Shown here piece after piece: positions 52 to 36,748 of a stretch of DNA of 37,123 nt; the first letter of the stretch is position 1, and the number at the start of each line of letters is the position of its first letter. Position numbers and translations under genes: made by a program. This DNA comes from Myxococcales bacterium (GTDB lineage: Bacteria; Myxococcota_A; UBA9042; JABWCM01; BTVJ01). The DNA lies in assembly GCA_045863395.1 (NCBI GenBank), contig BTVJ01000070.1, forward strand, positions 1 to 37,123, read 5' to 3'. The notes below the pieces were generated by a model. That model saw only the letters and a program-made list of their open reading frames with translations, made no database searches and was not told where the DNA came from.

Positions 52-3000
52 TCAGTTGCAGCCTGGGATGGGCCCGTGCAGGCAGTCGCCCGTCATGAGG
101 TCGCACAGATCCACGGTGCAGGTGTCGCCGTCGTCGCAGTCGACGGGCTTGAGGACACAGCCGCCCTTCGCGGGGTCGCACTGCTCGACGGTGCACTGGT
201 TGGCGTCGGCGCAGAACCGCGGCGGGTGCAGGCACTCCCCGCTGGTCATGACGCAGATGTCTTCGGTGCAGACCTTGTCGTCGTCGCAGTCGACCTGGGT
301 GTGGGTGCAGTTCCCCGTGGCCACGGTGCACTTGTCGATGGTGCACCCGTTGCCGTCACCGCAGTCGCTGTCCTTGGTGCACTTCACGCACACGGCGGCC
401 GCCTGGTGGCCACACCCGCCCACGTCCGGCAGACAGTAGTCCGTCGTGCAGGGGTCGTTGTCATCGCAGTTCACGGGAGCGTGGCGGCAACCATAGCCCG
501 GGTCACACCAGTCCTCGGTGCACGGGAGGCCATCATTGCAGTCGTCGGGCCCCGACTGGCACTGGCCGGTGGCCAGGCACACGTCCTTGGTGCAGGGGTC
601 GCCATCGGCACAGAAGCCCATGCTGACGCAGCCCGTCTCCAGGTCGCACAGGTCGAGGGTGCAGGCCAGGCCGTCGTCGCACGCGCTGAGCAGGAAGAGG
701 CACCCCACGTCGGAGTCGCAGGAGTCGTCGGTACACGCGTTGCCGTCGTGGCAGGTCTCCTCCTGGTGGACGCAGCCGAGCGCCATATCGCAGTAGTCGA
801 AGGTGCACTCGTCGCCGTCGTCGCAGTCGAGCTGCGTGTAGACGCACTGCCCCGTGCCCTCGTTGCAGTCGGGGATGGCGCACGCCCCTACGGGCTTGCA
901 GTCAGCGTCCGCCGTGCACTTGCAGCCTGGAGCCGGGCTTGCCAGGTGCACACAGCCGATGCCATCGATGCACGAGTCGATGGTGCAGGGGTCGCCGTCG
1001 TTGCACGACTCTGGAGCGTTGATGCATCCCGTCGAGGGCGAGCACAGGTCCGTTGTGCACAGGTCCCCGTCGTCGCAGCTCTTGGGCCCGGTGACGCACG
1101 TGAGGCTGGCCACGTCGCAGACGGACTCCACGCACCCGTCCCCGCTGAAGCACACGCCGAAGCAGGGCACGCACCCCTTGATCGCGTCGAAGGCGCAGGT
1201 GCCGCTCGGCTTGCACGAGTCCGCGGTGCAGGGGTTGCCATCGTCGCACTGGGCGGCTGTGACGCACCCGAGGCACCCGGGGATGACCGCGTGGACGCAC
1301 AGCCCCAGGGCGTCGCAGCTATCGGCGGTGCACGGATCACTGTCGGCGCAAGCGAAGGGCTTGTGGACACACGTGCCGGTGACCTCGTCGCACAGGTCGA
1401 TGGTGCACGGGTTGTTGTCCGCGCAGTCCGAGGAGAGCTGGGTGCAGGTGCCGTCGCACTCGAGCTTCGGCTGGTGTACGCACAGCCCGGTCATCACGTC
1501 GCAGTAGTCCACGGTGCAGATGTCGCTGTCGCCGCAGGTCTTCGGCACGTTGACACAGCCGCCGAACTGGGTGTCACACAGATCGGTCGTGCAGGGGTTC
1601 AGGTCATCGCACGTGCGGGGCTTGGTGGAGCAGTTGCCCGTCGCCGGGTCGCACACGCCCTCCAGGCAGGCGCTCCCCGCCTCGCAGATCACGGGGATCT
1701 TCTCGCAGAGGTGGGTCACCGAGTTGCACGCGTCCTTGGTGCAGGCGTTGTTGTCGTTGCAGTCGGCGGCGGTCTTGCAGTAGATGCAGCCGACCACGGG
1801 CGCGTGGCTGCAGCTCCCGTCCGCGGCGCATACGTCCGTAGTGCATGGGTCGCCGTCGTCGCAGGCGTCCGCCGGGTAGGAGCAGCCGAAGGGCTCCTGG
1901 CAGATGTCCGACGTGCAGGGGTTCGCGTCGCTGCACGCCACCGCAGGGTACTTGCAGGTCCCCGTTCCCGGGTCGCATACGTCATCGGTGCAGGCCTTGC
2001 CGTCCGCGCAGGTGCTCACCGTCGCGCAGCCGGCGAACAGATCGCAGAAGTCGTCGGTGCAGGCCAGCCCGTCGTTGCAGTCCAGCGGTACGTTCTTGCA
2101 GCCAGAGGCGTCGCAGAGGTCTTCGGTGCAGGCGTCGCCGTCGCTGCACGCCAGCTTCACGTTGGAGCAACCGAGGGGCGACACGCACTTGTCGGCGGTG
2201 CAGATGTCGCCGTCGTTGCAGTCAGCGGCGACGTGGGTGCAGCCGTTGGCTCCGCAGGCGTCCACGGTGCACTCGTCATAGTCCTCGCACGAGATGGGGG
2301 CGTTGGAGCACCCCATCCAGGACAGGCACACGTCGTCTGTGCACGGGTCGCCGTCGCCACACTCCACCTTGGCGTAGCCGCACGTCCCCGTCGCCGGGTC
2401 GCAGAGATCGTCCGTGCACTGGTTCCCGTCGTTGCAGTCGAGCAACGTCGCGAAGCACCCGGTCACGGGGTCACACCCGTCCTTCGTGCACAGATCGCCG
2501 TCGTCACAGGTGCTCGGGATGAACACGCACCCCTTCGCGGGGTCGCAGGTGTTCTCTGTGCACGGGTTGAGGTCATCGCACAGCTTGGGCGCGTGGCTGC
2601 ACGACCCGGTGGCGATGTCGCACAGGTCCTGGGTGCACGGGTTGGCGTCGTTGCAGTCCGCCGCGGTCGTACACTCGACGCAGCCGGAGATCTGGGCGTG
2701 CACACACCCGAGGGACGGATCGCACGAGTCGGCAGTGCAGTCCTTGCCGTCGTCGCAGACTGCGGGCGCGTGGGTGCACGTGGCGACCCCGCCCACCGCC
2801 GAGCACCCGTCATCGGTGCACGGATCGTCGTCGTCGCAGTCGGCCGCGGCGTAGACGCACCCTCCCGGCAGCGCGCAGGAGTCGTCCGTGCAGGGGTCGT
2901 TGTCGTTGCAGACCTTGTCCGACTGCACGCAGCCGGCGACGACGTCGCAGAAGGAGACCGAGCAGGCGTCCCCCGGGGCACAGACCTTCGGGGTGTACGC

Positions 3001-3591: not shown

Positions 3592-3609
3592 GCTCTCTCC
3601 CTGTGCAGG

Positions 3610-6177
3610 CTAGTCGGCTCCCCTCACGAGGAGCCGGTAGCGATCATACCCCTGATTGTCCGAGTCGATGCGCGAGATGCCGGTGTTGTCCAGCGCCTGG
3701 ACCTTGACCGTGTGCGTCCCGGGCGCAAAGTCCTGCCCCCAGCCCAACACCGCGGGGGCCCACCAGGTCTCCGCCCCCTCGTGGACGGCGATAGCGAGGC
3801 CCCAGGTCCCGTGCCCGAGCGGAGTCCCGTCCACGACCAGGCGATAGCCTGTGTGGCTGCTCCCCGACGATGTGGTGCGCTGCGTCCCCGCCATCTCGAA
3901 CTGGACGTGGGTGGTCGCGCCCACCGCGAACGTGTGGCTCAGGTTGGGGACGTCCACCCACGAGTTGGGCACCGTGAAGCCGGTGCTGTTGGACTCGTAG
4001 GAGGCGGTCACACTGCCCTGCGGCGCCCAGCGAACCAGCATGCGGTAGCGGCTGTAGTCTTGGGTGCTGTTGTGAGCGAAGCACGCCCCCGAGCTGGACG
4101 TGTTGGCCATCTGGAGGGTCACGGTGTGGCTGCCGACCCCGAGATTGGTCCCGTACTTGAGCGCCATCGGCGTCCACCAGCCCTGGTCCGAGTCGGAGAC
4201 CACGATGGCCTGGCCGTGGGATGGGTTGCCGAGGCCGGTCCCATCCAACACGAACCGGTAGGCGCAGTGGCCCTGACTGCCCTGGGAGTATTGGGTCCCG
4301 GTGGCCGAGATCTGCACGTGGGCCGGCTCCGTCAAGGTGAACGTCGTCGAGACTCCTGGCACGGTGGTCCACCCTGTGTTGTTGTTGAGCTGGAGCTGCC
4401 CATTTCCCTGCACCCAGCTCACGCGGCTCTCGGGGTAGGCGCTCACCAGCAGGCGCGACCCATCGTAGATCTGTCCGCCGTCCCCGTCCAGGGTGCAGTC
4501 CCCGTAGCCGCTTGCGTTGGTTGCCTGCGGCGTGATCGTGTGCGTACCGGCCCCCAGCACGAGCCCGTACTCGATGTCGAAGGGGGTGTGCCAGCGGGTC
4601 GCGCCTTCCTGCACGACGATGCCCAGGCCCCAGGTCGACTGACCGTGACGGGCACCGTCGATGGTGAACGTGTAGCCCACGTGGCAGAGCCCGTTGCCCC
4701 CGCCAGCCCACCGCATGGTCCCGATCCACCGCAGATGCACGAAGCGGGGCTCGGTCAGCGTGATCGCCGCGCCCAGCCCCGGCGCGTTCCCCCAGTTGCC
4801 GTCGGGCTTCGTGACCGTCCAGTTGTTTCCGTTGGACTTCCACGTCCAGAGCTGCGCTCCCTGTGAGGGCGGCGGCGCTCCGCTCCCAAGCTCCGTGAAG
4901 TCCGCGCCGTCGCACACCTCCAGCGCGTCGCCAGTCCATCGCAGGGTGCCCGCCTTGTCGGCGTTGCAGACCGAGTCGGCGCCAACCTGGACGCCCCCCG
5001 CCACGGAGAGCGCGGCCTTGGGGGCGAGGGTGCCAACGCCGACCTTCCCCGCGCCATCGACCACGAGGCGCGCCGCCGGAGTCCCCGCGCCCGTCGCAAC
5101 CACGAAGGAGCCCGCCGTTGAGGTCTGCGGCTGGACCACCAGGTTGCCCGCGACATCGAAGGGGGCAGCGCCGCCCCCGCTCGTCCGGTAGGCAGCCGCG
5201 GCCCCGGACCCCGCCACGAAGGCGCCGAGCCCGTCCTCGAGCTGGAGCCTCGCCCCAGCCCCGGACAGCCCAGCGACCCCCTCCACGTGCAGGCGGTCGC
5301 TGCTACTCCCCGAGCCCACGCTCACGTTGCCGGACACGCTCAGGTTGCCAGGATTGATCGCCACGTCGCCGTGGGCCGTCCCCGTCCCGAACTCGATGCC
5401 CTTGAAGGCCCCCCCGTCGGTGACGCGGACACCTTGCGCCGCGCGCAGATCGAGGGGGGAGCCCGTCGCCGACGCCAGGCTCGCCCCCGCCAGGTTCACC
5501 GTACAGCCGCTCCCGAGCGCGGTGCACGCGGCGAACGTCCCCTTCACGGAGACGTTGCCGTCCAGCGCCACATTGGGGGCGATGTGCGCGCCGGTCAGGC
5601 AGCCGGTGCAGGCGAGGGACAGCGCCGGACCGCCCTTGGCGTTGCTGGCGGCGTAGTCGAAGGAGACCTTGCCGGGGGTGACGGAGCCGTCGCTGAGGAG
5701 CGGCGTGCTGATGGCCCCCCCCTCGATGGCCGCCGCGCCCACGCAGCCAGTGCAGGACAGGCCGCTCGCGGTGCTGGCCGTCGCCGCCGTGTTGGCCGTC
5801 GTCGCCGTGTTCGCGTGCTCGGCGACGAGGGCGAAGGGCGTCGCGCGCACCTGGGAGCGGGGCAGCGTCTCTGTTCCCACGGTGGTCTCCAGCCACACGG
5901 ACGCCCGCCCGTTGAGCAGCCCCGCCGGGAGCGGCCCCATCACCGCGTCGAAGCGCCCGGCGGTGACCACGACGTTTGGCACCGTCTGCTCGTAGAGGTG
6001 GGTCGTGTCGTCGGCCTGCGCGAAGAGGCGCAGCGTCATGGTGAACGTGCCACTGGCGGGTGAACCACCCGCGGTCTCCAGCGCCCCCTGGACGGTGATC
6101 TTCGGCTCCACGGGGGCGGCAAGGAGTGGCGAGATGAGGGCGAAGGCCAGGACGGTCACAACCCAGGCACCCTTCAT
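3610..6177 (-). CDS. Secreted phage-tail-fibre-like adhesin, 855 aa, with three tandem C-terminal beta-sandwich domains
   Basis: AAGGAGG RBS; Sec-type signal; N-domain (ITVQGAL...GRFDAVMG...WLETTV...PRSQV..TPFALVA) typical of deltaproteobacterial fibre proteins; two L[SA]CTGC motifs; fibre motifs GNVSVG..SDRLHV and GKVGVGTLAPKAALSVAG; Cx5-GTLRW..LEVCDG module; triplicated tip. Confidence 0.8.
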   Translation of the reverse strand: MKGAWVVTVLAFALISPLLAAPVEPKITVQGALETAGGSPASGTFTMTLRLFAQADDTTHLYEQTVPNVVVTAGRFDAVMGPLPAGLLNGRASVWLETTVGTETLPRSQVRATPFALVAEHANTATTANTAATASTASGLSCTGCVGAAAIEGGAISTPLLSDGSVTPGKVSFDYAASNAKGGPALSLACTGCLTGAHIAPNVALDGNVSVKGTFAACTALGSGCTVNLAGASLASATGSPLDLRAAQGVRVTDGGAFKGIEFGTGTAHGDVAINPGNLSVSGNVSVGSGSSSDRLHVEGVAGLSGAGARLQLEDGLGAFVAGSGAAAAYRTSGGGAAPFDVAGNLVVQPQTSTAGSFVVATGAGTPAARLVVDGAGKVGVGTLAPKAALSVAGGVQVGADSVCNADKAGTLRWTGDALEVCDGADFTELGSGAPPPSQGAQLWTWKSNGNNWTVTKPDGNWGNAPGLGAAITLTEPRFVHLRWIGTMRWAGGGNGLCHVGYTFTIDGARHGQSTWGLGIVVQEGATRWHTPFDIEYGLVLGAGTHTITPQATNASGYGDCTLDGDGGQIYDGSRLLVSAYPESRVSWVQGNGQLQLNNNTGWTTVPGVSTTFTLTEPAHVQISATGTQYSQGSQGHCAYRFVLDGTGLGNPSHGQAIVVSDSDQGWWTPMALKYGTNLGVGSHTVTLQMANTSSSGACFAHNSTQDYSRYRMLVRWAPQGSVTASYESNSTGFTVPNSWVDVPNLSHTFAVGATTHVQFEMAGTQRTTSSGSSHTGYRLVVDGTPLGHGTWGLAIAVHEGAETWWAPAVLGWGQDFAPGTHTVKVQALDNTGISRIDSDNQGYDRYRLLVRGAD
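3613..4854 (-). repeat. Three ~137-aa tandem domains (approx. 4432-4854, 4021-4431, 3613-4020)
   Basis: Each shares W..[AV]P.[LV]...[IF]....GT....H..Y.[FL]..DG...G....G..I.V.....W..P....[YW]G....G[TS]HT...Q...Y...R[LM]LV. Confidence 0.85.
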
Positions 6178-6211
6178 GGGGCCTCCTTCAGCGGGCGTCG
6201 GTACGTTGGCT

Positions 6212-6230
6212 CAGAATGAGAATCATAGGG
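6212..6230. promoter_or_regulatory. Fur-box-like operator overlapping the -10 element
   Basis: CAGAATGAGAATCATAGGG matches GATAATGATAATCATTATC at 12/19, with core AATGAGAATCAT; AT-rich island in a GC-rich context. Confidence 0.4.
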
Positions 6231-6250
6231 TCCCTCACCGCCCATGTCAG
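6222..6250 (-). promoter_or_regulatory. sigma70-type promoter for the fibre gene and probably the lipoprotein gene
   Basis: Minus strand CTGACA (6250-6245)-N17-TATGAT (6227-6222); each hexamer is 5/6 consensus; 45 nt above the ATG at 6177. Confidence 0.65.
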
Positions 6251-8585: not shown

Positions 8586-8638
8586 GCTGCCTCCATGCGG
8601 ATGTCAGGGGCCCACAGCCTACGCTTGATCGGGGGCAG

Positions 8639-8667
8639 TCGACAACCGCGGCGACCCGAAGTACCAT
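8639..8667 (+). promoter_or_regulatory. sigma70-type promoter, probably giving a leaderless mRNA for 8674..9300
   Basis: TCGACA (8639-8644)-N17-TACCAT (8662-8667); the ATG A is 7 nt after the -10; no SD motif. Confidence 0.55.
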
Positions 8668-8673
8668 GCCGCC

Positions 8674-9300: not shown

Positions 9301-9306
9301 CAGCGG

Positions 9307-11288: not shown

Positions 11289-11332
11289 AGGTCGGTGGGC
11301 AGCGCTCGCGCCGCCCCCCCCTCACCCGACCT
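11289..11332. terminator. Imperfect hairpin between the convergent htpG and giant-gene stops
   Basis: AGGTCGG...CCGACCT outer arms enclose GGGCAGCGC/GCGCCGCCC; no U-tract. Confidence 0.3.
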
Positions 11333-29300: not shown

Positions 29301-31566
29301 CCAACAGACCTGCTGGCACCGTGACCGTGGTCATGACGCCATAGTCGCTGACATTCGGGACGCAGTAGTACTGGCCTCCGGAGCACATGTACTTGCCCGC
29401 GCCGCAGTCACCCAGCATCCCCGTGGAGCAGGTGCCGTACGACGTGCCGTTGGACTTGGCAGTCCACGTCGTCGTCGACGTGGCCGTCGCGCACTGCTGG
29501 CAGTTGTTCGACGGATTGGAAGTGCCGTTCGTGTAGCAGACGTTCCCGATGTCGCAGTAGCCAGCCTGAAGGGCATAGTTGCACCCGCCCGCGCCGTTGC
29601 AGGAGTCCGTCGTGCAGGCCTTCCCGTCGTTGCACGAATAACCCGTCCCGGCGCAGACCCCGGAGGAGTTGCACAGGTCCGAGTAGGTGCAGGCGTTTCC
29701 ATCGGTGCAGGCCACCCCGGTCCGTGGGCTCCAGGCCGTCGTGCTCGTCCCCGTGATGCACGCCTGGCACGAGTTGGACGGATTGACGGCGCCGTTTGCG
29801 TAACACACCCCCGCAATCAGGCAGTTGCCCCCGATCAGCGTGTTGGTGCAGCCGCCGGAGCCATTGCAGGCGTCCGATGTGCAGGTCAGGTTGTCGTTGC
29901 ACGAGTACGGGGTGCCGACGCAGCTCTTGTTGACGCAGGTGTCGGTCTTGGTGCACGCATTTCCGTCGTTGCACGCAATGGAGTTGGCCACGTTGGAGCA
30001 GACTCCACCTGAGCAGGAGTCGTTGGTGCAGACGTTGTTGTCGTTGCAGTTCATGGGGGTGCCGGACCAGCAGCTCCCCCCACTGCAGTAGTCGTTCACC
30101 GTGCAGGCGTTTCCGTCGTTGCACGCCGTCGTCAGGTTCGAGTAGACACACGCGCCGTTCGCCGTGTTGCAGTACTCGCTCGTGCAGACGTTGTTGTCGT
30201 TGCAGTTCTTGGGGTTCGTCCCGTAACACCAGCCGCCCGAGCAGTAGTCGGTCAGCGTACAGGCGTTTCCATCGGTGCACGCCGCGGAGTTGGCGCTGTA
30301 CTGGCACCCGATCCCCGAGTGACACCAGTCATCGGTGCAGACGTTCCCGTCATTGCACGTGATCCCCTGATAAACGCACTGATTGCCCCAGCAATAGTTG
30401 TTCGTGCAGGCATTGTAATCGTCGCACTGCCAGTCGTAGTAGCACTGCACATAGCAGTAGCCGCACTGCTGGCAGGCGTCGTAGCAGCAGTCTCCGTAGC
30501 TCACGCAGGCAGAGTCGCAGTAGCAGCCGGCGTAGGAGTTGTACCCGCCACACTTGCCCGCGCATGAGCTGGGGTCCCCCCCACCGCAGTGTCCACACCA
30601 GTAACACGAGTCGTAGCAGCAATCACCGGCGATGACACAGTAAGAGTCGCACCAGCAGCCATAGGGGGAGTAGGTGCCGCAATAGCCGTAGCAGGAGTCG
30701 ACGGGCTCGCAGGTGTTGCGGTGATCGCACTCTCCCATGACGCAGGCATCGACGGTGCAGTCGTCGTGATCGTCGCAGTCTGCCTTCACGGAGCACGCCT
30801 CGACTACCTCGAAGGTGGGGTCCAGGTAGACGGGCGCCACCCTCTCGACCCCCGTGACCCACGAACCGTCGAACCGGGTCTCCACCTCCAGCTCGGTTCC
30901 GTTCCACTTCACCCGATAAGTACCCGGGCTCAGGGACGGCCCCCCTTCGGTTTGCGAGTCCCACGCGACAGGCTCGCGGAGCCGGAAGCGCACGATCCCG
31001 TCCTCATCCAAGAACTCCACGAGCCGCCCCTCGACCCAGTCGGCGGTCACCTCCACCCCATCGGCCACCACCCGGGTGATGCCCGTCAGGGCCAGGCGCT
31101 CCTCCAAAACCACGGACTCCGCGCCCCAGAGATCGCCGTCGTCCAGCAGATCGAGCCGGACGAGCTGCTTCAGGGCCGCCGCCTCCACCTCATAGGAGAG
31201 CTGGTACCGAACCGGGTCCGGCTGAGCGTAGTCGAGGGTCCGTCCCCCGCTGACGCGCTGCGCGTGGCTGAGGCGCACCGGCTCCCTCATGGCGCCATCG
31301 AAGCGAAGAACGGGCTCATCCACCTGCAGGACGCCGTGGCCCCCCGCCGTCGCCAGGGCTGGCGCTCCAGCCTCTTCCGGCGCCGGGATGACCACGACGA
31401 AGTGATCGAGGTTCACCTCCCAGCGCTCGGCAGCCGAGCGGACCGGTCCTGTGGCCTCTGCCTCCGACGCAGACTGCGCCCTGGCCGTGGCTGCCCAGAA
31501 GGCGGCGAGGCTCAGCGCGGCAATCACCGAACGTCGCGCCCGCTTGGCGCTGGCCAGAGAAAGCAT
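11332..31566 (-). CDS. Giant secreted multidomain Cys-rich adhesin/matrix protein, ~6744 aa (6752 from the GTG at 31590)
   Basis: Uninterrupted 20.2-kb ORF with coherent domains throughout. ATG 31566 has GGAG 6 nt upstream. Signal peptide ..RARRSVIAALSLAAFWAATARA|Q; no lipobox and no C-terminal TM or sorting motif. Confidence 0.93.
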   Translation of the reverse strand: MLSLASAKRARRSVIAALSLAAFWAATARAQSASEAEATGPVRSAAERWEVNLDHFVVVIPAPEEAGAPALATAGGHGVLQVDEPVLRFDGAMREPVRLSHAQRVSGGRTLDYAQPDPVRYQLSYEVEAAALKQLVRLDLLDDGDLWGAESVVLEERLALTGITRVVADGVEVTADWVEGRLVEFLDEDGIVRFRLREPVAWDSQTEGGPSLSPGTYRVKWNGTELEVETRFDGSWVTGVERVAPVYLDPTFEVVEACSVKADCDDHDDCTVDACVMGECDHRNTCEPVDSCYGYCGTYSPYGCWCDSYCVIAGDCCYDSCYWCGHCGGGDPSSCAGKCGGYNSYAGCYCDSACVSYGDCCYDACQQCGYCYVQCYYDWQCDDYNACTNNYCWGNQCVYQGITCNDGNVCTDDWCHSGIGCQYSANSAACTDGNACTLTDYCSGGWCYGTNPKNCNDNNVCTSEYCNTANGACVYSNLTTACNDGNACTVNDYCSGGSCWSGTPMNCNDNNVCTNDSCSGGVCSNVANSIACNDGNACTKTDTCVNKSCVGTPYSCNDNLTCTSDACNGSGGCTNTLIGGNCLIAGVCYANGAVNPSNSCQACITGTSTTAWSPRTGVACTDGNACTYSDLCNSSGVCAGTGYSCNDGKACTTDSCNGAGGCNYALQAGYCDIGNVCYTNGTSNPSNNCQQCATATSTTTWTAKSNGTSYGTCSTGMLGDCGAGKYMCSGGQYYCVPNVSDYGVMTTVTVPAGLLERSTGNVVGGHQLITSDGRYLYNLAYGRGAAYNGYRYRQFDPRNGFAQVAQRDSGTVSFYADGAVVDAPYSGGRHTGTGYLYPIEWTGGIGRIDRIVVSNGTLVANVGQVPQGSPVSMINGQWDWVLDKVFMGSLYASNVARWAHGATWAPTAPSATTSNWEASATNGSIAGAGVVASDGTYLYVKRWATYPGDDILRRVGTGSGGTTFGAFYGHASNGSTTNSLSMTYMPDGYVYNPRSGDPYTLERVRVTASKWEICDGKDNDCDGFTDEDFPTKGQACDGSDADLCAYGTFTCKADGTGVECVNESPANVPEICDLVDNDCDGLTDEGFNLGAACDGPDPDLCSDDGVIVCNLANGSTKCEDRGPTTYFPFDEGNGTLTRDFSGNGKNGTLVGNTAWTTTAKYGGQALYFDGASDYVEFSSGGIDTRRGSLAMWVRPDFNGGDATAYGMFQTNSGVNNAGWISMFKWTGNIFYFRISATGDCCVNDVTFAPSGYLVSGTWVHLAATWDQTSNAIRVYANGTLVASKTSGINWNIPVTAALSRVGVGHDAWMRGRIDDVGIYSYALTQAEIQTLMNSSVEAKYKDLEICDGVDNNCTGGIDEGFDKGTACSAGVGQCAVAGTKVCLAPGFTTVCSVTDGKVSGTACDDGGLCTYPDRCTGGPSSSCVGTPYTCNDGLTCTADTCNGNGTCTFTVTTGCAISGVCYAEGAVNPSNQCQACVSATSKTAWTNKTNGTLCNADNNGCTTNDSCQSGTCTAGAAQACADAYSCTNNVCTSTGTNTYSCSNPFIAGQCLYGGACAVQGTTLCDSTEDVDLCTDDGVVMCSGGTGSCANQGPITYFPFDEGNGTIAYDFAGNGNNGTLTGSVARTTTAKFGGQALTFDGGVGYTQFPSTGIKPTSGTVSVWLRPGFAGTNGTAYGVFQTQNGVNNPGWISLFKWTSNIFYFRIVPNAGCCGNDLTFAPGAYLVSGTWVHLAATWDQAGDFMRVYMNGSLVASRSGVNWAIAAPNAVSRFGQGHDAYWLGQMDDAAVYGYALTQAEIQSVMNSSVDAKFKDFEACDNVDNDCDGVTDEGWDKGVACTVGTGACANTGVKVCNANGIGTTCSVTFKPNGTACDDGNACTNDSCQGGVCTGVAKAAGTVCRASAGGCDPAETCNGTTAQCPADAKSAAGTVCRASAGACDVAETCNGTAVACPADTFLANTVVCRAAVAGGCDVEEKCTGTSAACPADVVQANGTVCRASAGACDVAETCNGVANTCPTNAFASSATVCRNSGGVCDPEEKCTGSAAACPADLKSASGTVCRPSAGPCDVAETCNGTANTCPTDAFQANTLVCRPSGGVCDPEEKCTGSAAACPVDAKSANGTVCRASAGVCDVAETCNGTANTCPTDAFVANTVTCRPSGGVCDIEEKCSGTTAACPADAKVANGSVCRASAGVCDVAETCNGTAVTCPADAFVANTTVCRPSGGVCDIEEKCTGTTAACPADAKVANGSVCRASAGVCDVAETCNGTAVTCPADAFLANTTVCRPSGGVCDIEEKCTGSAAACPVDAKVASGSVCRASAGVCDVAETCNGTAVTCPADAFLANSTVCRPSGGVCDIEEKCTGSTAACPADAKVASGSVCRASAGVCDVAETCNGTAVTCPTDVFVANTTVCRPAVAGGCDVEEKCTGSAALCPTDVVRPSGTVCRASAGVCDLVETCNGSANTCPVDAYAPTSTVCRPAATQCDVAENCSGSGVSCPADALKANGTSCDADGSGCTVNDTCQTGSCTAGAAPNCADAYTCTTDACVSTGASSYSCSHTVNNGTCLIGTSCYNDNATNGANQCQRCWSATSKTAWSDKPNGTACNDGSACTSPDTCTAGTCGGPADPQIGQACDGPDADACTDGIKVCSGTSVVCADDGASVYLKLDEGTGTTAADWAGNANNGTRVNGSAWGEGVYGKAATLDGVDDYIQIPYAASLAPIDSVSVSMWIKPNAGTDCNTTAGVNNWRWLLGQGATATTFNLIYEENQSVTWTVNLQSGGTQRLFSGTNSVPESVWSHMVFTYSGATGKLRTYRNGVLLLESTVPTGVLTTSTNPVRIGNWSNTVACPTGSGSFGGQIDEVAIYNRELSAADAVTLFTGLVPGQLANSERCNGIDDDCDGLTDEGYSNIGVACDTTADADLCSDMVRACTVDELSVVCPDGPLGAWTFPENGGALAKDSGGGGFDLSLMNGTAWAAGKQGTALSFDGVDDYAWHPGWAKFAGFSQQSISVWIRPTASTGDQHIISSSGHNDGNGCCWRWRMWRSADRLIRFALWDGDNSDIVSSVVAPDNAWTHVVVTFKVGGVDRIYVNGVPSGTVNTITSNSAFGYLHLGAYYWNGTAQGLFKGQIDEVSVFTQELTRDQVAALYSKGRVPPEQINFEYCDGLDNDCKNGADDGHVFGPCDGPDSDLCLNGQLGCTTNLLTTVCGAESPTNIVELCNGADDDCDGLTDELWPTLGQTCDGPDSDQCKNGLVVCATTTTVTCGTESPANITEKCNNIDDDCDGQTDEDFPLKGQTCDGSDSDQCKNGTYTCTTNGAGVECVNESVTNITEKCNGIDDDCDGSTDEDFATLGQSCDGPDSDQCKNGVLVCNGAQTGVTCGPESPANIVEICNGLDDDCDAQTDEGFNLGASCDSADPDSCSEGVIVCKPDASGAMCAGEPVVYLKLDEGTGATAFDSSSYGNHAAFNGATWAAGQSGGAAQFAGAQWLEIANGTSNKVTGPGITMMAWVYWSGVTGSNIIVNKESTYEAGVNNGTFQCAVATSGGSWFWSGTAAVPANTWTHVACTHGPDNQIRTYVGGVLKTTQANTGNGTIVTNNNVVQVGRRVAGSFFNGRLDEVAIFDHALTGARIAQIFSSGLPASKNYEYCDGVDNDCNGQTDELFATKGQSCDGSDADLCKNGTFTCATSQIIVECVNESVTNIVDKCNGVDDDCDGSTDEDFPTKGQACDGSDSDQCKNGTFTCTANGATVECVNETVTNIAEVCNGADDDCDGATDEGFDVGAACTMGVGTCEAAATKVCKADGTGTVCQGNGKPAGAACDDSNACTKTDVCSGGPSSSCAGVPYTCNDNLACTTDSCNGDGTCTFAINAGSCSIGGVCYADGAQNPANECQVCAAATTNTAWSNKLNGTACNKDSNGCTFRDSCQAGTCVAGAVPSCSDGISCTSDVCTSTGANTYTCSNPPVAGQCVIGAITKVDASAFTGASGSCTATTGSAPLGLTCTGGGCTSGCSTASRFDYAMTTVAGRNYDVVAKVADYLHNCTNKIKVGLYKDGVLVSMWDGAGTNDWSYPKWSFTATAASTTVSIKLENDACCSCSSVCSPTCVPLAGDINLYVDTLTLVDTSVGPCWANNVVNPANQCQTCSTASSQTAWTNKTNGTACDADGSGCTVGDSCQSGSCAAGPAPDCGDGFGCTTDVCNTTGATTYSCSSTIDAGKCLIAGVCYANGDTDPGNQCKQCTAATSQVAFSNKSNGSACNDGSACTAPDTCTAGVCAGPDIPSIGQACDGADADLCTEGVVLCKLDKSGTVCSDGAGLVFRFEEGSGTSAIDTSGNGRNGSIQGTGNGTTSYGPGKNGAFGINFAFSPSFPGGTTVTRVRVPPAGLTSWKMTFAAWVYPDVDGSRYIVSRTSTNGNTGLEISAYGAIDFAGGLISGGSSTHVMRLPLNTWSHLAVTYDGVTFRAYRDGVERLNKPVTVNEATTTWNSDIWLGQDQDSPNGGLSASQAFSGTLDDVVWYERPLSASEIVALMNTGVPAADINHELCDGLDNDCDTLTDEGWSALGNACDGDDGDLCSDGSLICAPSGLATTCRNDGPVGAWTFSEQTGTTAHDASGSGNHAALSGALWTTLGGRTAVDLDGVDDAVTAPHSASLAIAGPASLEAWVWIDALPPAGWGFAGIVAKGDLPRNYSLYLTSAGFLHFSTSGINPGGATPHCGSASTAKPPLGQWVHLAAVNRGPLTQTHEYYINGVAAGVSPLGGECVFPMPTSTAPVTIGRTGEPNRWLDGKVDLVAIYDRALSAAEIAARASSGIPALQLNEDLCDGADNDCDGLTDEAFADLAQSCDGPDSDQCKNGVMICTTSQWATVCGPETPANIAEKCNALDDDCDGQTDEDFPLKGQSCDGADTDLCKNGTYTCTVAGTGVECVNETLTNITEKCNGLDDDCDGLTDENWPTKGQACDGADTDQCKNGTFTCKADGSNLECVNETVSNIVEACNGADDDCDGLTDETWAELGDPCDGSDADQCKNGSFTCKSNGSGTECVNESVTNIAETCNGQDDDCDGSVDEDFPTKGQACDGGDDDQCKDGLFTCKANGTGVECVTDGPVAFYRFEEGSGATAASASGSVGVAALTAATWTTAGPTGYGKAIVLNGTTAYGAVPHHATLDATTDLTLAAWVKWGGNGHTYQHIVDKGNGTAWTMFVVGATGELFIKLNNSQWKVGTVPQGAWAHVAATFKSTSGTTGTVVGYLDGVQKISVTAPFGALGTTTQPMHIGSAGAGINVWKGNLDEVAVYRKVLTPVKIAALFGQGEACNGVDDDCDGQTDETFANKGAACDGADTDQCKNGTFTCAPSLVVLECVNETVTNIAETCNGVDDDCDGLTDEDFAWSGIVVGSACDGTGECGAGVVQCKTTTSATCSTNPDGTASQAVAEKCNGKDDDCDGLTDEDFTYTQQNGTVRAKGQSCDGVGECGIGVVECASLAAATCSTDPNGSASQAVSEICDGKDNDCDAATDEGFVYTQENGQQKALGQACDGIGECGMGTVHCNPGKTAATCSTNPDGTNDQSQIELCDGLDNSCNGMTDEGFVYQGQPIGGPCDGVGACGVGTVECFNASNARCSTEPGGSQSQSVPETCNGADDDCDGETDEASPGVPLTQACYTGPNGTIDVGLCKGGTATCSGGTYGACVGQVLPKPSDTICDGKDEDCDGQKDEDYAPVACGTGVCANTSACVSGAVVACAPKPQTGDDTDCDGLDDDCDGQTDEAFIPTTYGLGVCACQSTCVSGSEIACTPSSPPLAQDTTCNGQDDDCDGQTDESFTDGIACTVDVCVAGEGTSTPNHAACNDSEACTDDACSIAAGGCVHTPDDSNAPNPAADDGNPCTDLVCQGGTSKNVIDDSNVPDDGKSCTADTCSGGVASHAIIDGNCFIDGDCWAPGDVNPSSGCEVCAPLTSPAAWTNGVFSESFSAGTLGKMTSTKLSGSLLGWQADTKRSVSPAHSAYFGDPINHNYDKGRVRARLESPALALAGGVMHRLRFHIWMETEMFAGSTDYDALVVRVRSVDGSVDQEVWNSTEALIGSTGGVWRKIDVNLDPATFGGQSVTLRFEFDSGDGAYNQFEGVYLDDITVGTACCFTSGDCEDGDTCTEDFCAAGSCDFTYLCDPSCVPASNNVVLVLDRSASMNTADGAMTRWEWATDAVDLTAAVYAPVMNVGLKVFPTSGACSSSAGLDVPFHATQAQISTFLAGATPTSGSNPMAQALAAAGAQLQTLAYSNAHSTIVLITDGGAGCTESPSRVAVIEQLAAAGVNTIVVGYGYGSGDVATLNAMAIAGGLPKPRTSPSDTWFYAATSPSALVGILDTALSVVSGERCDGSDDDCDGDVDEQVAARACNPDCGIGGKQQCASGGWGVCSVVPEPEVCDGQDNDCDGLVDEDWYPDTNGNALGGLCSKGVGECLAWGNWVCNGASPAGPAVCSAATIAPKAETCNNKDDNCNGVVDDGLVKTCSTACGTGTETCAAGLWVNCTAPPVLPEVCNNIDDDCDGVTDEGPTGTPLQKACATACGTGVESCLAGQWKNCTAQQPYAELCNNADDDCDGQTDEGLDGFALTEPCYSGGSGSSGIGNCHGGTRTCSGAVWGPCMDEQVPVPEICDGEDNDCDGVADEGPDGGALTKECNEGPGQGICQTGISICELAAWTECIGSVQPQPEQCDGLDNDCDGQTDENAGTTFCQGQPGCYNGNCKCGKDFFGNYKCYLD
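12508..13089 (-). other. von Willebrand factor A domain
   Basis: VVLVLDRSASM (DxSxS), IVLITDG, GVNTIVVGY, LNAMA..GG. Confidence 0.88.
13213..13713 (-). other. MAM-like / cleaved-adhesin-type jelly-roll domain
   Basis: FSESF...W...LESP..L....L.F..W..TE....YD.L.V...W....V.L....GQ.V.LRF.F.S.......G.YLDDITV. Confidence 0.65.
19207..19659 (-). other. Carbohydrate-binding-module-like jelly-roll
   Basis: G.NY.V...V...WSFTAT...TTVSIKLEND...GDINLYVDTL resembles the F.ND....DRNLYVD motif of Ca-dependent CBMs. Confidence 0.5.
24055..25884 (-). repeat. 19 tandem 32-33-aa disintegrin-like repeats
   Basis: Unit VCR.S.G.CD..E.C.G....CP.D matches the C-terminal half of disintegrin domains (CR.....CD..E.C.G.S..CP); 96-bp period. 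Confidence 0.85.
28545..29346 (-). other. Cys-free beta-rich, probable beta-propeller domain (~265 aa)
   Basis: Recurring blade-like motifs SDGRYLY, GTGYLY, DKVFM, SDGTYLYV, PDGYVY. Confidence 0.55.
30463..30699 (-). other. Two somatomedin-B-like domains
   Basis: SCYGYCG..CWCDSYCVIAGDCCYD..C and SCAGKCG..CYCDSACVSYGDCCYD..C fit SC.G.C...C.CD..C....DCC.D...C. Confidence 0.8.
30811..31430 (-). other. Cys-free N-terminal domain ending in a PVYLDPT motif
   Basis: LKQLVRL...FRLREPVAWDS...DGSWV....R.APVYLDPTF resembles the 'W....R.YPV.IDP' N-terminal module of large exported WapA/RHS/DNRLRE-type proteins (recalled, not searched). Confidence 0.5.
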
Positions 31567-31597: not shown

Positions 31598-34500
31598 TCA
31601 TGGGCAGAGGTCCTGGACGATCACACACGTCCCGGACCCGCCGCAGGTCGCCAGAACACAGGGGTCCAACCCCTCGCAGTCCACGTCGGTCCCACAGGGG
31701 ACGCAGCCGGACACGAGGGCGTAATCGCAATATCCAATTTCGACACAGGCCTGAGCGGTACACCCGTCGCCATCGTCGCAGTCGGCGGCAGTGGCGCAGG
31801 GGATCCCGCTGCATGCGGGATCGATGACGACGTGCTCACAGAGCCCCAAGGGCGAGCACTTGTCCCACGTACACGCGTCCGTGTCGTGGCAGTCGGAGGC
31901 CTTCGTGCACTTCTGGGCGACACAGCCGCTGATGGGCGAGGCGCTGCACGTGCCGTTCAGGCAAGCATCCGCAGTGCAGGGGTTCCCGTCGGAGCAGTCG
32001 CTGGCCTGCTCGCATGGCCCGGGACACCCGACGATGGGTATGTTGAGGCAGACGCTGCCCGAGCAGACGTCGGACGTGCAGGGGTCCAGGTCGTCACACA
32101 CGGCCGCCCCTGAGCAGATCTTCCCGCTGCAATGGAGTCGGTCCCCATGGGCGCACACGGTCGCCCCGGCGCAGTCGTCCACCGTGCAGGGGTCCCCGTC
32201 GTTGCAGTCCCCCTTCGTGGCGCATGGGCCGGCGCCGCAGCCGGGGACGGCGGCCCAAGAGCACAGCCCTGCCGCACAGGTCGCAGACCAGCAGCCGCCG
32301 AGCGAAGAACAGTCGGTCGCCGTGACACACGCCGCGCACCCATTCACCGGCTCGTGCACGCACCCGCCGGAGACGCAAGAGTCCGCCGTGCAGGGGTCCG
32401 CGTCATAGCAGTCCTGGGGGTAGACGCAAGGGGCCGTGGAGCACCCGGACACGGGCACCTCGACGCAGATGCCCGCGGCCGAGCACTTCTGTACGACGCA
32501 GGGCTTCCCCGTCTGACAGCCAGCGTCGGATGCGCATGGGGTGCCCATGCAGTAGGGAATCGGAGCGTTCTGGCAGTTGCCATTGACGCAGGAGTCGCTC
32601 GTACACACCTTGCCGTCGTCGCACTCCCCTGCGGTGGAGCAGGGCTTGGTGCCGCAGCCCGGCTCAGGGGAATACTCGCAGATTCCCTGGGCGCCGCACT
32701 TGGGGATCTTGCACTCGCGGGGAGGACAGTCGCTCACCTTGGTGCAGGTCACGCACTCGGGGATGGGCACGTAGGTGCAGGACTGCCCCACGCACGCGTC
32801 GATGGTGCAGAGGTTCGAGTCGTCGCACTGCCACGTCTCCGTGCAAGTGCCGTTACCGCAGCCTGGCCCGCTCAGAGGCGGGTGTACGCAGATCCCCGGC
32901 GGGTAGCAGACGTCCACGGTGCAGGAGTCTCCGTCCCCGCAGTCGCCGTCGCCTGCGCACGGGGCGCCGCCGCAGTAGGGAGGAGCCCAGTGTTGGCAGC
33001 CGCCAAACGTCGTGCAGGTGTCGGTCGTGCATGGGTCAGAGTCGTCGCAATCCTTGTCGGTCGAGCACTCTGCCGAGCAGCCGGCGAGGGGCTGCACGGA
33101 ACACACCCCGAGCACGCAGGTCGGCACCACGCACGGGTCCCCGTAGTCACAGTCGGGAGATGTCACGCACGGCATCCCCGTGCATCCGTCGATTCCAACC
33201 AGCGTGCAGCTCCCGGTCGGCGTACACGTGTTGATGGTGCACGGCTGACCGTCTTCACAGTCCGCGTCCTTCGCACACTCGCCCCCGCAGGGAGTGATGG
33301 GCGTGGACGTACACACGCCGGAAGAGTCACAGGAATCGGCCGTGCATGGCTCGCCGTCGTCACACTGTCCACTGCTCGCGCAGGGCTTGCCGGTACAGCC
33401 GAGGATGGGTGCCGGAACACAGGTGCCACCCAGGCAGAGGTCGACCGTACACGGGTCACCATCCCCACAATCTTTGGGAGTGATGCACGGGGTACCGCAG
33501 CCGGGAATCGGCGTCATGGCGCAGAAACCGTCAGCGCAGGCGTCGGTCGTGCAGGCGTCGGCGTCGTCGCAGAAAGCCTGGGTCTGGCACGGCACGCCAG
33601 GGCACCCCGGAAGGGGCTCGAACGTGCAGTACCCACCGAGGCACACGTCGCTCGTGCACTCCCAGAAGTCGTCGCAGTCGGCAGACACGGCGCAAGGCTG
33701 GAGCCCGCAGCCCGCGATGGGCGCAAATACGCAGTAGCCGCCGACACCACAGGTGTCCGCCGTACAACCATTGAGATCGTCGCAGTCGCCGTGGACCGCA
33801 CAGCCGACCAGGCCGCAGCCAGGGATCGGAGCGTGGCCGCAGGTGCCGCCGCTGCACGAGTCCACCGTACATGGGTCTCCGTCGTCGCACGCGCCCGCGC
33901 CGCCGCAGGTTGTCCCGCAGCCCGCCTTGGGAGTATGGGCGCATGTCCCCCCGAGGCACTGGTCCGTCGTACACGAATCGCCGTCATCACAGTCGGAGGG
34001 CCCACCGCAGCATCCAGGGACGCTCGCGGAGGGTATGCAGGCCCCATTCAAGCACTGGTCACCGGAGGTGCAGGGGTTCCCGTCGTTGCAAGGCCCCTGA
34101 GCTGGCAGATTGTAGCAGCCCGAGGCGGCCTGGCACCCGTCGGTGGTGCAGCCGTTGCCGTCGTCGCACGGTAGAGTCAGCCCCTGGCAGACTCCGGCCT
34201 TGCATGCATCCCCCGCCGTGCACAGGGACCCGTCCTCGCAGAGGGTCCCGTCGGGGCGCGCCACCGTGGTGCACGCCCCGCTGGCGGGCTGGCAGACCGC
34301 CAGCACGCAGGAGCCCTGCGGCGGCGGGCACTTCACGACCGTCGCGGGATTCACCTGGCACGCCCCGGCGACGCAGTGGAGGGTCCCGTTGCACAGGTCG
34401 CCGTCCTCGCCGGGCTTGCAGTCCCCGTCGGTCTGGCACCCGCAGATGTTGGGCCCGGACTCACAGGCGCCGCCCGTGCACAGGTCACCGAAAGTGCATG

Positions 34501-36748
34501 GGTTGCCGTCGCTGCACGCTCCCGAGCCCGGCTCGTTGATGCAGGCGCCCGAAGCCGAGCAGGCGTCCGAGGTGCAAGGGTTGCCGTCGTCGCAGGACTT
34601 GGCCAGGCCCGAGCACACGCCACTCTTGCAGGCCGCGAACAGCAGGCACGCGCCGCCGGCGCAGGGGACGCCGTCCGGAGCGGACAGCACCGCGCACTGC
34701 CCGGTCGCGGGGACGCACGCGGCCACCGCACAGGGGCCCGTAGCGGTCTTGGAGCAGTCGGGGATGGTCGCCGGGTCGACAACGCAAGCACCATCCTTGC
34801 AGACGAGCGCTCCATTGCAGAGGTCCGCGTCGTCGACCTCCGCGCAGTCCGCGTCCGTGACACAGGCACACACGTTCGCCCCGGCCTTGCACGCCCCACC
34901 GGCGCAGGTGTCCCCGAGCGTGCATGGGTTTCCGTCCTCGCATGGGGCCGCCGCCGCGATGTGTACGCACCCCTTCGCGGGGTCACAGGCATCGGCGGTG
35001 CAGGGGTTTCCGTCGCCGCAGGAGTCCACCGCGCCGCTCTTGCACTTGCCGGCCAGGCAGGCGTCACCGATGGTGCAGCCGTTGCCGTCGGTGCAGGTCG
35101 AGCCATCCACGAGCGGGATCTGAACGCAGGCTCCCGTCGCCGGGTCGCACGCCGCGCTGTTGCAGGGGGTCGCGGCGCCGGCACAGGATGGGATCGTCGT
35201 GGGATCGAGCAGACACTTGCCCCCGGCGCAGGTCAGTGTCCCATTGCAGGCGTTGCCGTCCTCGAACGCCGCGCAGTCCGCCTGCACCGCGCAGGCGCAC
35301 ACGTTGCCGGTGGGGATGCACGCTCCGCCCTTGCATGCCTCGCCGATGGTACAAGAGTCGCCGTCGTCGCACGGGCCATCCACCGGGGCGTAGGAGCATC
35401 CGCCGCCCACCTTGCAGGTGTCGGCGGTACACGGGTTGCCGTCGTCACAGGACACAGCCGTCCCACCGACGCAGGCTCCAGCCACGCAGGCCGTCCCCTT
35501 GGTGCAGGGGTCCCCGTCCTCGCACGGCGCACCATCCTTTGCAGCGGAAGCAGCACAGGAACCGGTCGCCGGATCGCACGCGTCCTCCGTACAGGGGTCT
35601 CCATCCTCGGGACACGTCACGGGGCCGCCTGGACCCGGGAGGCAGGCGCCCCCCTGGCAGGTCAGAAATCCTTTGCAGGCGTCGCCCTCGAGGTTGGCAC
35701 AGTCGGCGTCCGTCGCGCAGGAGCAGACGCTACCCGCCGCCGTGCAAGCACCGCCGGCGCACGCGTCGCCGACGGTGCAGGCGAAGCCGTCGTCGCAGGG
35801 CGCACCGTTGGCGACGTGCGTACAGCCCGCCGGATCGCACGCGTCGTCCGTGCAGGGGTTTCCGTCCGCGCATTGCGCATCGGACTCGGCGGAGTCGTGG
35901 ATGCAGCCCACCATCATGTCGCAGGAATCAGCGGTGCATGGGTCGCCGTCATCACAGTCCAGAGGCCCGTCCGGCACGCAAGCCCCGCCGTCGCACACGC
36001 CCGCGGTGCAAGGCTGGGCCGCGACGCAGGGACCCGCCGCCGCCTCGTAGGTGCAACCCGCCGCCCCGCAGGTGGCCGCGGCGCAGGCGCCCTCGGAGGG
36101 GCACAGCGCGTCATCGGGCTCGTGGGAGCAGCCGGTCACCGGATCGCAGGCGTCCACGGTGCAGGCGACGCCGTCGTCGCACAAATCGCCGTCGGCGAGG
36201 TGGGAGCAGCCCGTCGAGTCGCAGGCATCCGTCGTACAAGGGTCCCCGTCGTCGCACCCTGCGCCCGCCACGCACTCCCCCGCGTCGCAGGCGTCGTCGC
36301 TCGTGCACGGGTCCCCGTCGTCGCACGGGCCGCTGGCGCCCGCGTGGCTGCAGTCGCCCGTCTCGGTGTCGCACAGATCCTCGGTGCAGACGTTGCCATC
36401 GTCGCACGGCGCACCCTCGTCCGGCACGCACTCGCCCGCGTGACAGGACCACCTCGGTTCACAGGGGCTCTCGATCTTGCAGGTCGCTCCATCGGACAGC
36501 GGGGTCGTCCTGCACTCCCCGTCGGCGCACGCCACCGCAAGACACGGGTCCGAGGGGCATGGCTCGCCACGGCACAGCCCTGCCCCATCGGCCCCCCCGG
36601 AGTCCGAGGGGTCGGGTGAGCCATCGTGGGTCGCATCCGCGGCGGCGTCGGAAGCGGCGTCGGCAGCAGCGCCGCCCGATCCTGGGCCCGGGCACGCGGC
36701 GAGCGAGAGCGTCAGCAGGCAGGCCAGGCTGAGGAGGGGGGACCGCAT
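31598..36748 (-). CDS. Large Cys-rich repeat lipoprotein, 1716 aa
   Basis: Start reset to ATG 36748 (GAGGTG RBS; MRSPLLSLACLLTLSLAA-C, lipobox LAAC). Acidic linker, then only CDDG.PCT.D.C-type repeats. Stop is 31 nt before the giant-gene ATG. Confidence 0.9.
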   Translation of the reverse strand: MRSPLLSLACLLTLSLAACPGPGSGGAAADAASDAAADATHDGSPDPSDSGGADGAGLCRGEPCPSDPCLAVACADGECRTTPLSDGATCKIESPCEPRWSCHAGECVPDEGAPCDDGNVCTEDLCDTETGDCSHAGASGPCDDGDPCTSDDACDAGECVAGAGCDDGDPCTTDACDSTGCSHLADGDLCDDGVACTVDACDPVTGCSHEPDDALCPSEGACAAATCGAAGCTYEAAAGPCVAAQPCTAGVCDGGACVPDGPLDCDDGDPCTADSCDMMVGCIHDSAESDAQCADGNPCTDDACDPAGCTHVANGAPCDDGFACTVGDACAGGACTAAGSVCSCATDADCANLEGDACKGFLTCQGGACLPGPGGPVTCPEDGDPCTEDACDPATGSCAASAAKDGAPCEDGDPCTKGTACVAGACVGGTAVSCDDGNPCTADTCKVGGGCSYAPVDGPCDDGDSCTIGEACKGGACIPTGNVCACAVQADCAAFEDGNACNGTLTCAGGKCLLDPTTIPSCAGAATPCNSAACDPATGACVQIPLVDGSTCTDGNGCTIGDACLAGKCKSGAVDSCGDGNPCTADACDPAKGCVHIAAAAPCEDGNPCTLGDTCAGGACKAGANVCACVTDADCAEVDDADLCNGALVCKDGACVVDPATIPDCSKTATGPCAVAACVPATGQCAVLSAPDGVPCAGGACLLFAACKSGVCSGLAKSCDDGNPCTSDACSASGACINEPGSGACSDGNPCTFGDLCTGGACESGPNICGCQTDGDCKPGEDGDLCNGTLHCVAGACQVNPATVVKCPPPQGSCVLAVCQPASGACTTVARPDGTLCEDGSLCTAGDACKAGVCQGLTLPCDDGNGCTTDGCQAASGCYNLPAQGPCNDGNPCTSGDQCLNGACIPSASVPGCCGGPSDCDDGDSCTTDQCLGGTCAHTPKAGCGTTCGGAGACDDGDPCTVDSCSGGTCGHAPIPGCGLVGCAVHGDCDDLNGCTADTCGVGGYCVFAPIAGCGLQPCAVSADCDDFWECTSDVCLGGYCTFEPLPGCPGVPCQTQAFCDDADACTTDACADGFCAMTPIPGCGTPCITPKDCGDGDPCTVDLCLGGTCVPAPILGCTGKPCASSGQCDDGEPCTADSCDSSGVCTSTPITPCGGECAKDADCEDGQPCTINTCTPTGSCTLVGIDGCTGMPCVTSPDCDYGDPCVVPTCVLGVCSVQPLAGCSAECSTDKDCDDSDPCTTDTCTTFGGCQHWAPPYCGGAPCAGDGDCGDGDSCTVDVCYPPGICVHPPLSGPGCGNGTCTETWQCDDSNLCTIDACVGQSCTYVPIPECVTCTKVSDCPPRECKIPKCGAQGICEYSPEPGCGTKPCSTAGECDDGKVCTSDSCVNGNCQNAPIPYCMGTPCASDAGCQTGKPCVVQKCSAAGICVEVPVSGCSTAPCVYPQDCYDADPCTADSCVSGGCVHEPVNGCAACVTATDCSSLGGCWSATCAAGLCSWAAVPGCGAGPCATKGDCNDGDPCTVDDCAGATVCAHGDRLHCSGKICSGAAVCDDLDPCTSDVCSGSVCLNIPIVGCPGPCEQASDCSDGNPCTADACLNGTCSASPISGCVAQKCTKASDCHDTDACTWDKCSPLGLCEHVVIDPACSGIPCATAADCDDGDGCTAQACVEIGYCDYALVSGCVPCGTDVDCEGLDPCVLATCGGSGTCVIVQDLCP

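Follow-up and report, generated by a model that had tools for sequence, protein, structure and literature searches.

When several genes for exported, cysteine-rich proteins stand together in a bacterial genome, do they build one surface structure or merely share a neighborhood? The question is raised by a 37,123-nt contig (BTVJ01000070.1; C70) of a Myxococcales bacterium, assembly GCA_045863395.1 (hereafter G000; 8.77 Mb, 97% complete, 71% GC); the whole contig was analyzed and is called the window. Five open reading frames (ORFs), all on the minus strand, occupy 33,252 nt with a coding-type GC content at third codon positions (0.83-0.92): a lipoprotein (LP1), a fibre, a CotH-family kinase, a giant mosaic protein and a second lipoprotein (LP2). 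A preliminary description had correctly assigned about 33 of 37 kb to these genes, and had read them as a single matrix. We find that, of the window's links, only that between fibre and lipoprotein recurs across G000. Our preferred reading, in which we place somewhat better than even confidence, is that the window contains one of about 30 copies of a fibre–lipoprotein pair in this genome, that on the cell side the lipoprotein likely serves the secreted fibre as holdfast or stalk, the fibre's variable tip being predicted to bind surface glycans, and that giant and CotH kinase are neighbors that probably act independently.

A recurrent fibre–lipoprotein gene pair

The fibre gene (3610..6177, minus strand) encodes an 855-residue protein resembling the mosaic adhesive trimer (MAT) fibres, with a signal peptide, a conserved N-domain, a CxxC hinge, a beta-rich shaft modeled at low confidence and a three-domain tip. 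Its partner gene LP1 (52..3591, minus strand) encodes an 1179-residue lipoprotein in which an acidic tether of ~108 residues is followed by CTDC (PF00526) repeats up to the C-terminus. A custom gene caller (6129 genes in G000, with imprecise starts) yielded 63 fibres and 54 all-CTDC proteins (at least 10 repeats, 11% Cys). An all-CTDC gene is the immediate neighbor of 24 of the 63 fibres; the mean in shuffled gene orders was 1.0 (all genes) or 1.2 (genes of at least 500 residues), with a maximum of 5 in 300 shuffles. The link extends to 31/63 fibres within two genes and is confined to short distances: all-CTDC genes fill 25/119 slots at distance one, 10/110 at distance two, and at most 2 per ~100 at distances 3-12, the figure for control exported-looking genes being 10/442 slots. 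Pairs are fibre-first (11), lipoprotein-first (9) or divergent (5), and never convergent. The window's fibre and LP1 are joined by this genetic link.

On the N-domain tree, which is poorly resolved and has one row mis-cut, the paired fibres lie dispersed (15 changes versus 19.5 when shuffled), so a single co-duplication does not explain the pairing. The lengths of paired fibres and lipoproteins correlate weakly (Spearman 0.42, n=35, pairs not independent). Outside G000 we sampled 80 stretches around fibre matches in 22 relatives, holding 97 fibre genes, a best-hit-biased part of ~540 matches. Here a Cys-rich gene adjoins 26/97 fibres (kin are not independent), and such genes, all co-directional, fill 30/165 fibre-adjacent slots as compared with 23/500 among other genes. 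Fibre-based locus searches of genome and metagenome contigs returned nothing usable; the genome search gave one 75-residue shaft match (an Elusimicrobia record), in a locus with no N-domain match.

A sigma70-like promoter match (6222..6250, minus strand; 10/12 consensus match only) lies between the CotH and fibre genes, so fibre and LP1 could be transcribed without CotH; three such sites were found versus 0.5 expected, again by consensus match only. A REP-like repeat with small hairpins (window 1-55) stands straight after the LP1 stop; the genome holds 23 copies of at least 35 nt, 10 of them at contig ends.

Two paralogous G000 lipoproteins (C5:31394-32020 and C9:2447-3205, locus L137), DsbC/thioredoxin-like by eye and without CxxC, lie one between a fibre and its CTDC lipoprotein and the other right after a tail-bearing gene (see below); at two loci, paralogous HEAT-repeat-like genes (C31:21063-21818 and C51:35254-35964) separate the fibre from its CTDC lipoprotein. 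Among the relatives, one has about 12 fibres in a row (G018 C2:31765-80536), another a tailed lipoprotein followed by four fibres (G030 C10:137484-146126), and in a third (L123, G012) lipoprotein and fibre genes alternate.

A MAT-like N-domain and a predicted single-chain trimeric tip

The fibre N-domain (residues 23-125; 5803..6111, minus strand) is confidently predicted as a small immunoglobulin (Ig)-like beta-sandwich (predicted local distance difference test, pLDDT, 90), and three copies from a paralogue folded together at pLDDT 87-89. It matches Atlas family PF30789, known there on S74, fibrinogen and YadA-type fibres; the nearest Atlas clusters point to Myxococcota as the likely lineage. 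Against NF053851 (Bdello_MAT_N, the MAT N-domain; cut-off 60 bits) the window fibre scores 16.5 bits, below the cut-off; among 25 paralogues, 13 match at E up to 0.2 and 5 at E <0.001 (best 29.3 bits). Judged by these profiles, it is distantly homologous to the Bdellovibrio MAT N-domain, without being a curated member. A structure search gave only middling Ig-like matches (best 4yok, Z 8.2, root-mean-square deviation (rmsd) 3.6, 83 residues aligned), and a PDB sequence search with the N-domain profile just two rows, both weak (E 0.03). In 59/63 fibres the N-domain is followed by CxxC motifs (window 5600-5760). In the monomer model, most of residues 111-400, the shaft, stays at pLDDT <50.

The tip (residues 441-855; 3613..4857, minus strand) is modeled at pLDDT ~90 as three tandem TNF/C1q-type jelly rolls with single-chain trimer packing. 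It superposes on the engineered single-chain C1q 5hzf (Z 32.3, rmsd 2.8, 337 aligned), a structure type on which the model may lean. A single tip domain aligns with the Photorhabdus TNF-like lectin PLTL (9ib6; Z 13.7, rmsd 2.3, 122 aligned) and with Bd2734 (8okw; Z 9.3, rmsd 3.2, 122 aligned). The three-domain unit is kept in 21/21 homologues, and in 15/21 it is carried by Cys-repeat proteins that lack the fibre N-domain and in most cases have a lipobox; stalk and tip, as annotated from sequence, are thus one chain in those homologues and two genes in the window. The tip is predicted to be a natural bacterial single-chain TNF/C1q trimer.

The 63 fibres carry tips of 35 clusters, and 11 of 16 scanned paralogues have lectin-like tip folds (fibrinogen-C, LamG or Link/C-lectin). 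A constant N-terminal end, diversified tips and many copies are what define a mosaic family, and the G000 fibres have all three. The S74 autochaperone (PF13884) has no match in the window fibre or in the 16 scanned paralogues.

Probable full pairing of cysteines in the CTDC lipoproteins

The preliminary description had noticed that three proteins share Cys repeats, as borne out by CTDC motif counts of 34 (LP1), 25 (LP2) and 13 (giant); PF00526 scores are 503 bits for LP1, 273 bits for LP2 and 17-25 bits, below the cut-off, for each half of the giant. The family is present in 41/41 class genomes searched (114-3013 first-look candidates per genome), and G000 has 141 ORFs with CTDC motifs, 57 of them with at least 10 repeats. 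LP2 (31598..36748, minus strand; 1716 residues) is likewise an all-CTDC lipoprotein, with a short tether. Mature Cys number 176 in LP1 and 272 in LP2, and the count is even in 35/35 scorable all-CTDC proteins of G000 (those in which the tether could be located; 19/54 were unscored). The giant's 502 is also even. Full disulfide pairing is therefore likely in these proteins, which supports the export that had been proposed for them and leaves no spare Cys; disulfide cross-linking through spare Cys can be discarded on the same grounds. Signal peptides and lipoboxes were judged by eye throughout: the lipoboxes are LGA-C16 (LP1), LAA-C19 (LP2) and GAA-C25 (CotH), and the fibre and the giant have Cys-free signal peptides. 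LP2 is the final gene on the contig, so a fibre partner of its own may lie beyond it.

A beta-tail on fibre partners in relatives

In the relatives, most Cys-rich fibre partners are lipoproteins that end in a Gly-rich, three-strand tail of ~55 residues, for which there is no Pfam or NCBIfam match. Tail matches outside the seed set lie directly upstream of fibres on G000 contigs C128 and C112 and at two loci of G009. Six tail genes were found in G000, five beside a fibre and none in the window, and 1-4 stand-alone tail genes were detected in genomes with 26-68 fibres. The tail is absent from LP1 and LP2, so for these two only gene linkage points to a role as tethers. In another class, 17/30 fibre loci have an upstream same-strand frame, and at 9/30 an upstream acidic-linker protein (5 of the 9 with a visible lipobox) ends in a similar tail, by eye; profile comparison matches this tail only weakly with the first set (probability 27.6, E 6.5e-4). 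Searching the Atlas with the tail yielded no usable match, and its profile found 22 proteins only among 1.84 billion representatives, none below 1e-10, so these searches established no connection to the similar small domains that stand upstream of fibres in other phyla.

We also modeled the tail together with its putative target. For the paralogous pair on contig C94, three N-domains plus tail scored 0.48, the best of three controls 0.02. That mark was reached by 116/157 solved and 2/215 mismatched pairs, of which 18/157 and both mismatches lay at or below 0.60, and the C94 job was unlike the calibration set; contacts agreed to at least 86%, with partner pLDDT 51-57 and no interface returned. 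The modeling thus lends weak support to an N-domain/tail complex, and we regard the tail as a candidate for the MAT surface anchor.

A signal-peptide protein (P0024; its tail sequence is the same as L055:8686-8841 of G009) carries a dockerin-like repeat pair, by eye, so fibres might dock on cohesin scaffolds in that lineage. Family f7 (L163-L180) conserves a tail-bearing Cys-rich gene upstream of a gene judged homocysteine-methyltransferase-like by eye, not of a fibre, and there the tail ends in an amphipathic, tryptophan-rich helix.

Proposed mechanism

We hypothesize that fibre and lipoprotein would be exported by Sec and folded oxidatively, the fibre trimerizing and LP1 becoming lipid-anchored, presumably in the outer membrane, where it would carry its acidic tether and disulfide rod. 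The fibre itself has no anchor and would then be captured non-covalently at its N-terminal end by the lipid-anchored partner, its variable tip thereby reaching out to prey or surfaces. In relatives, capture would occur through binding of the C-terminal three-strand tail to the fibre N-domain; here, as LP1 has no tail, the fibre's binding site would be either the CTDC repeats or one of the six tail proteins encoded elsewhere. With 63 fibres and 35 tip classes, the cell would own a repertoire for gripping many prey (if, as we infer, it is a predator) or surfaces.

A bolder version of this process, which we analogize as a two-part plug, is a tentative proposal that may well fail: spacer proteins anchored by lipid or on a scaffold would end in the tail, which would pack onto a trimer of fibre N-domains and constitute the missing MAT anchor, and in G000 this tail would have been replaced at ~30 loci by all-CTDC rods that hold the fibre directly, one such fibre being tipped with a natural single-chain TNF/C1q trimer.

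The giant protein, the CotH kinase and the intervening genes

The giant (11332..31566, minus strand; 6744 residues) consists of an N-domain ending in LDPT, 13 CTDC, 29 MopE-like, 8 LamG and 18 disintegrin-like repeats, a VWA domain and a conserved Cys-rich C-terminal cap; there are also two motifs that we take to be somatomedin-B-like. G000 has 76 MopE-like ORFs. The disintegrin-like array (24049..25881, minus strand) lacks RGD and is the sole such ORF in G000, although these repeats are no unique feature, being present in 37/107 class genomes. As the preliminary description had said, the giant has no visible anchor (no hydrophobic segment above 1.46 on the Kyte-Doolittle scale, no NCBIfam sorting tag), and its ATG at 31566, with GGAG upstream, is 31 nt past the LP2 stop.

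Two orthologues of the giant are mostly 65-85% identical per 200-residue bin, except at residues 1-400 and ~1600-2800; both keep the C-terminal cap and lack the disintegrin array. Both start with a lipobox-like Cys and ~50 extra residues (their starts may be mis-called), so the giants of close kin seem to be lipid-anchored themselves, and the window's giant has the look of a derived form without lipidation. Its N-domain has a homologue (L143:3748-8736, G016) that, by eye, closes with a sorting tail of IPTL-CTERM-like character, indicating that the domain is carried by proteins with different anchors. G000 encodes two more giant ORFs, of 8992 and 6968 codons (C22:20355-47330 and C10:48098-69001), both low in Cys.

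The CotH-family kinase (6247..8004, minus strand) is a 585-residue lipoprotein with a small Cys-rich module; it matches the full PF08757 profile at 126.7 bits (cut-off 23.8) with the family motifs intact, which agrees with the exported kinase described earlier ahead of the fibre and LP1. The idea that it is dedicated to its neighbors gains little support from other loci, although two close kin probably share the link. G000 has nine CotH matches, and only in the window's case is a fibre or an all-CTDC gene at most two genes away (1/9); a fibre lies downstream at 0/4 loci in class relatives and at 0/15 metagenome loci with at least 2 kb of downstream sequence, and a fibre lies upstream at 1/31 metagenome loci. 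The DSBA-like (PF01323) gene that overlaps the CotH start by 4 nt (8001..8585, minus strand) was considered as a dedicated disulfide oxidase and rejected, as its product has no Cys, hence no CxxC, and no signal peptide. On the plus strand follow a zinc-ribbon and bPH_2 membrane protein (8674..9300) and htpG (9370..11268). The two minus-strand units had been described as split by htpG; the split is real, and three genes rather than htpG alone intervene.

Positions 27-10298 are found as one identical contig in the probable source run, and an independent DNA run covers the same region in pieces. RNA-library contigs from a related strain (two runs of one study; strand and level are not readable from contigs) cover LP1, CotH, the 5' part of the fibre, htpG and 8.7 kb at the 3' end of the giant, but thinly at ~3340-5050, the fibre tip; we read from them no expression, co-transcription or tip swap. 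A poly-G/poly-C tract at the contig end (37050-37123) is probably an assembly artefact.

Weighing the explanations

Several observations count against the holdfast reading. No all-CTDC lipoprotein lies within two genes of 32/63 G000 fibres. Among the relatives' fibres, 1/97 has an all-CTDC neighbor and that one is tailed, so that tail-less pairing was not seen in the relatives sampled; G001, of the same order, has one Cys-rich neighbor among 26 fibres, G036 0/6 and G014 0/5. A fibre lies within 1.5 kb at 0/18 newly found tail loci (mostly of one family, 3 of 21 non-seed loci having been dropped as non-terminal), and binding was modeled for the C94 paralogues rather than for the window's own proteins. 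A shared motif upstream of the 63 fibres was not found, the top k-mers being Cys-repeat coding sequence of upstream partners. This last result also cuts against the view that fibre and CTDC lipoprotein are merely co-regulated, being two separate adhesins (alternatively, one adhesin plus a spacer coat protein) that share promoters without contact, the fibres being anchored in trans by a few beta-tail proteins. That view is compatible with all three orientations, with the lack of a recognizable binding domain in LP1 and with the small number of tail genes (six for 63 fibres in G000, and 1-4 detected stand-alone genes in genomes with 26-68 fibres). The length correlation would instead suit physical contact, and in relatives the same slot is taken by tail-bearing Cys-rich lipoproteins. 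Overall we think co-regulation without contact unlikely as an account of the pairs; for LP1 itself it has substantial weight. We give very little credence to a third possibility, that the lipoprotein is a folding or secretion aid (a chaperone or length gauge) that releases its fibre: it would fit the weak length correlation, the missing S74 autochaperone and the DsbC-like genes at one fibre locus and one tail locus, but fully paired Cys leave no redox site, and for half of the fibres there is no nearby partner.

The earlier proposal that all five genes build one disulfide-rich matrix, with the lipoproteins tethering the giant and the CotH kinase phosphorylating it, now seems improbable, and the idea of a five-gene extracellular matrix is mostly unsupported. 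The 31-nt gap with its ribosome-binding site is in its favor, as is the giant's lack of a lipobox, unlike its orthologues, since it could then need a tether. The window is also the densest of 150 G000 windows in such genes (88% versus 46% for the runner-up); this density is due to the 20-kb giant, and five such genes per 37 kb occur in 3/150 windows with 2.2 expected, so that the cluster as such is ordinary and only its density is extreme. An all-CTDC neighbor is present at 1/14 Cys-rich giants of G000, the window's own. Fibre, CotH or htpG occurs at 0/6 fetched disintegrin-repeat loci and 0/2 loci of giant N-domain homologues. There is no free Cys for cross-links, both orthologues have a lipobox-like Cys, the partner of LP2 may lie off the contig, and three unrelated genes and a convergent junction separate the two units. 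Neither the giant's nor the kinase's link recurs in G000 or at distant loci. The preliminary description's own caveat, that linkage of the two units may be incidental, was apt. In close kin, the giant/CotH/fibre block is probably syntenic, as judged from matching contig records: orthologues of the fibre (80%), CotH (68%) and the giant (58% over the searched region) are all recorded with a longest contig of the same length, 40,859 bp, and those of fibre and CotH agree again at 113,630 bp, the second giant orthologue being on 62,074 bp. Such synteny counts in favor of the earlier proposal. It could equally reflect a larger conserved unit or simple inheritance, and to that extent also weighs against the holdfast reading.

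Significance and comparison with known systems

What appears to be new is a variant of MAT-like fibre display with a lipoprotein partner and a candidate anchor. The gene pairing names concrete candidates for the MAT anchor, namely the small beta-tail domain and, in this lineage, CTDC lipoproteins, and it gives a testable role to PF00526-repeat proteins, which are massively expanded in all 41 class genomes searched. The partners in the tail model are small (~57 and ~119 residues) and hence testable in E. coli. A warning also follows: dense Cys-rich gene clusters in these genomes are often chance neighbors. In a literature search that covered mostly titles and abstracts, with supplements (including the MAT tables of PMC10769870) and subscription journals outside its scope, we found no paper on the fibre–lipoprotein pairing, the tail, or a natural bacterial single-chain TNF trimer. 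In the available portions of these sources, the word 'anchor' does not occur in a 2026 review (PMC13689555), PMC13147790 counts MATs only, PMC11821767 covers sludge Myxococcota without adhesins, and Myxococcota are placed among the phyla rich in giant genes (bioRxiv 10.1101/2023.11.21.568195).

The window's CotH kinase is a lipoprotein form of its family (PF08757). Its fibre tip is predicted to have the fold of engineered single-chain C1q, adiponectin and APRIL-BAFF trimers (5hzf, 4dou, 4zch) and of PLTL (9ib6); unlike the engineered trimers, this chain is natural and bacterial, at 7-16% identity. Type V pili of Bacteroidia (Fim/Mfa), in which, according to the sections available, a lipid-anchored subunit holds its adhesive partner through C-terminal donor beta-strands (PMC13655056), offer an analogy of working only: we see no sequence relationship, strand donation here would be a guess, and unlike those pili the present system shows no evident polymerizing pilin and is expected to form a trimeric fibre. 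The Cys-rich repeats of Myxococcus TraA were proposed to be a rigid stalk for its recognition domain, and their resemblance to PF00526 was noted, in the part of Pathak et al. 2012 available (PMC3325183). The likeness extends to a Cys-rich repeat stalk presenting a recognition domain, with stalk and tip as separate genes in the window; unlike TraA/TraB, no window gene matches PA14, TIGR04201, MYXO-CTERM or an OmpA-type TraB in Pfam and NCBIfam scans.

The closest parallel is with the MAT fibres of Bdellovibrio bacteriovorus (the non-S74 group, e.g., Bd2734). The paper on these fibres (Caulton et al. 2024, PMC10769870) presumes that a surface element is bound by the MAT N-domain and does not identify it. 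Both systems are big paralogous families with a conserved N-domain, swapped tips and no anchor in the fibre, and with Bd2734 the window fibre shares a distantly homologous N-domain and a predicted TNF-like tip. Unlike MAT, the window fibre falls below the NF053851 cut-off and the G000 family has 63 copies versus 21; unlike the S74 subgroup, the window fibre has no C-terminal S74. The window tip also differs in placing three TNF-like domains in one chain, and the fibre genes of this lineage differ in being paired with Cys-rich lipoproteins.

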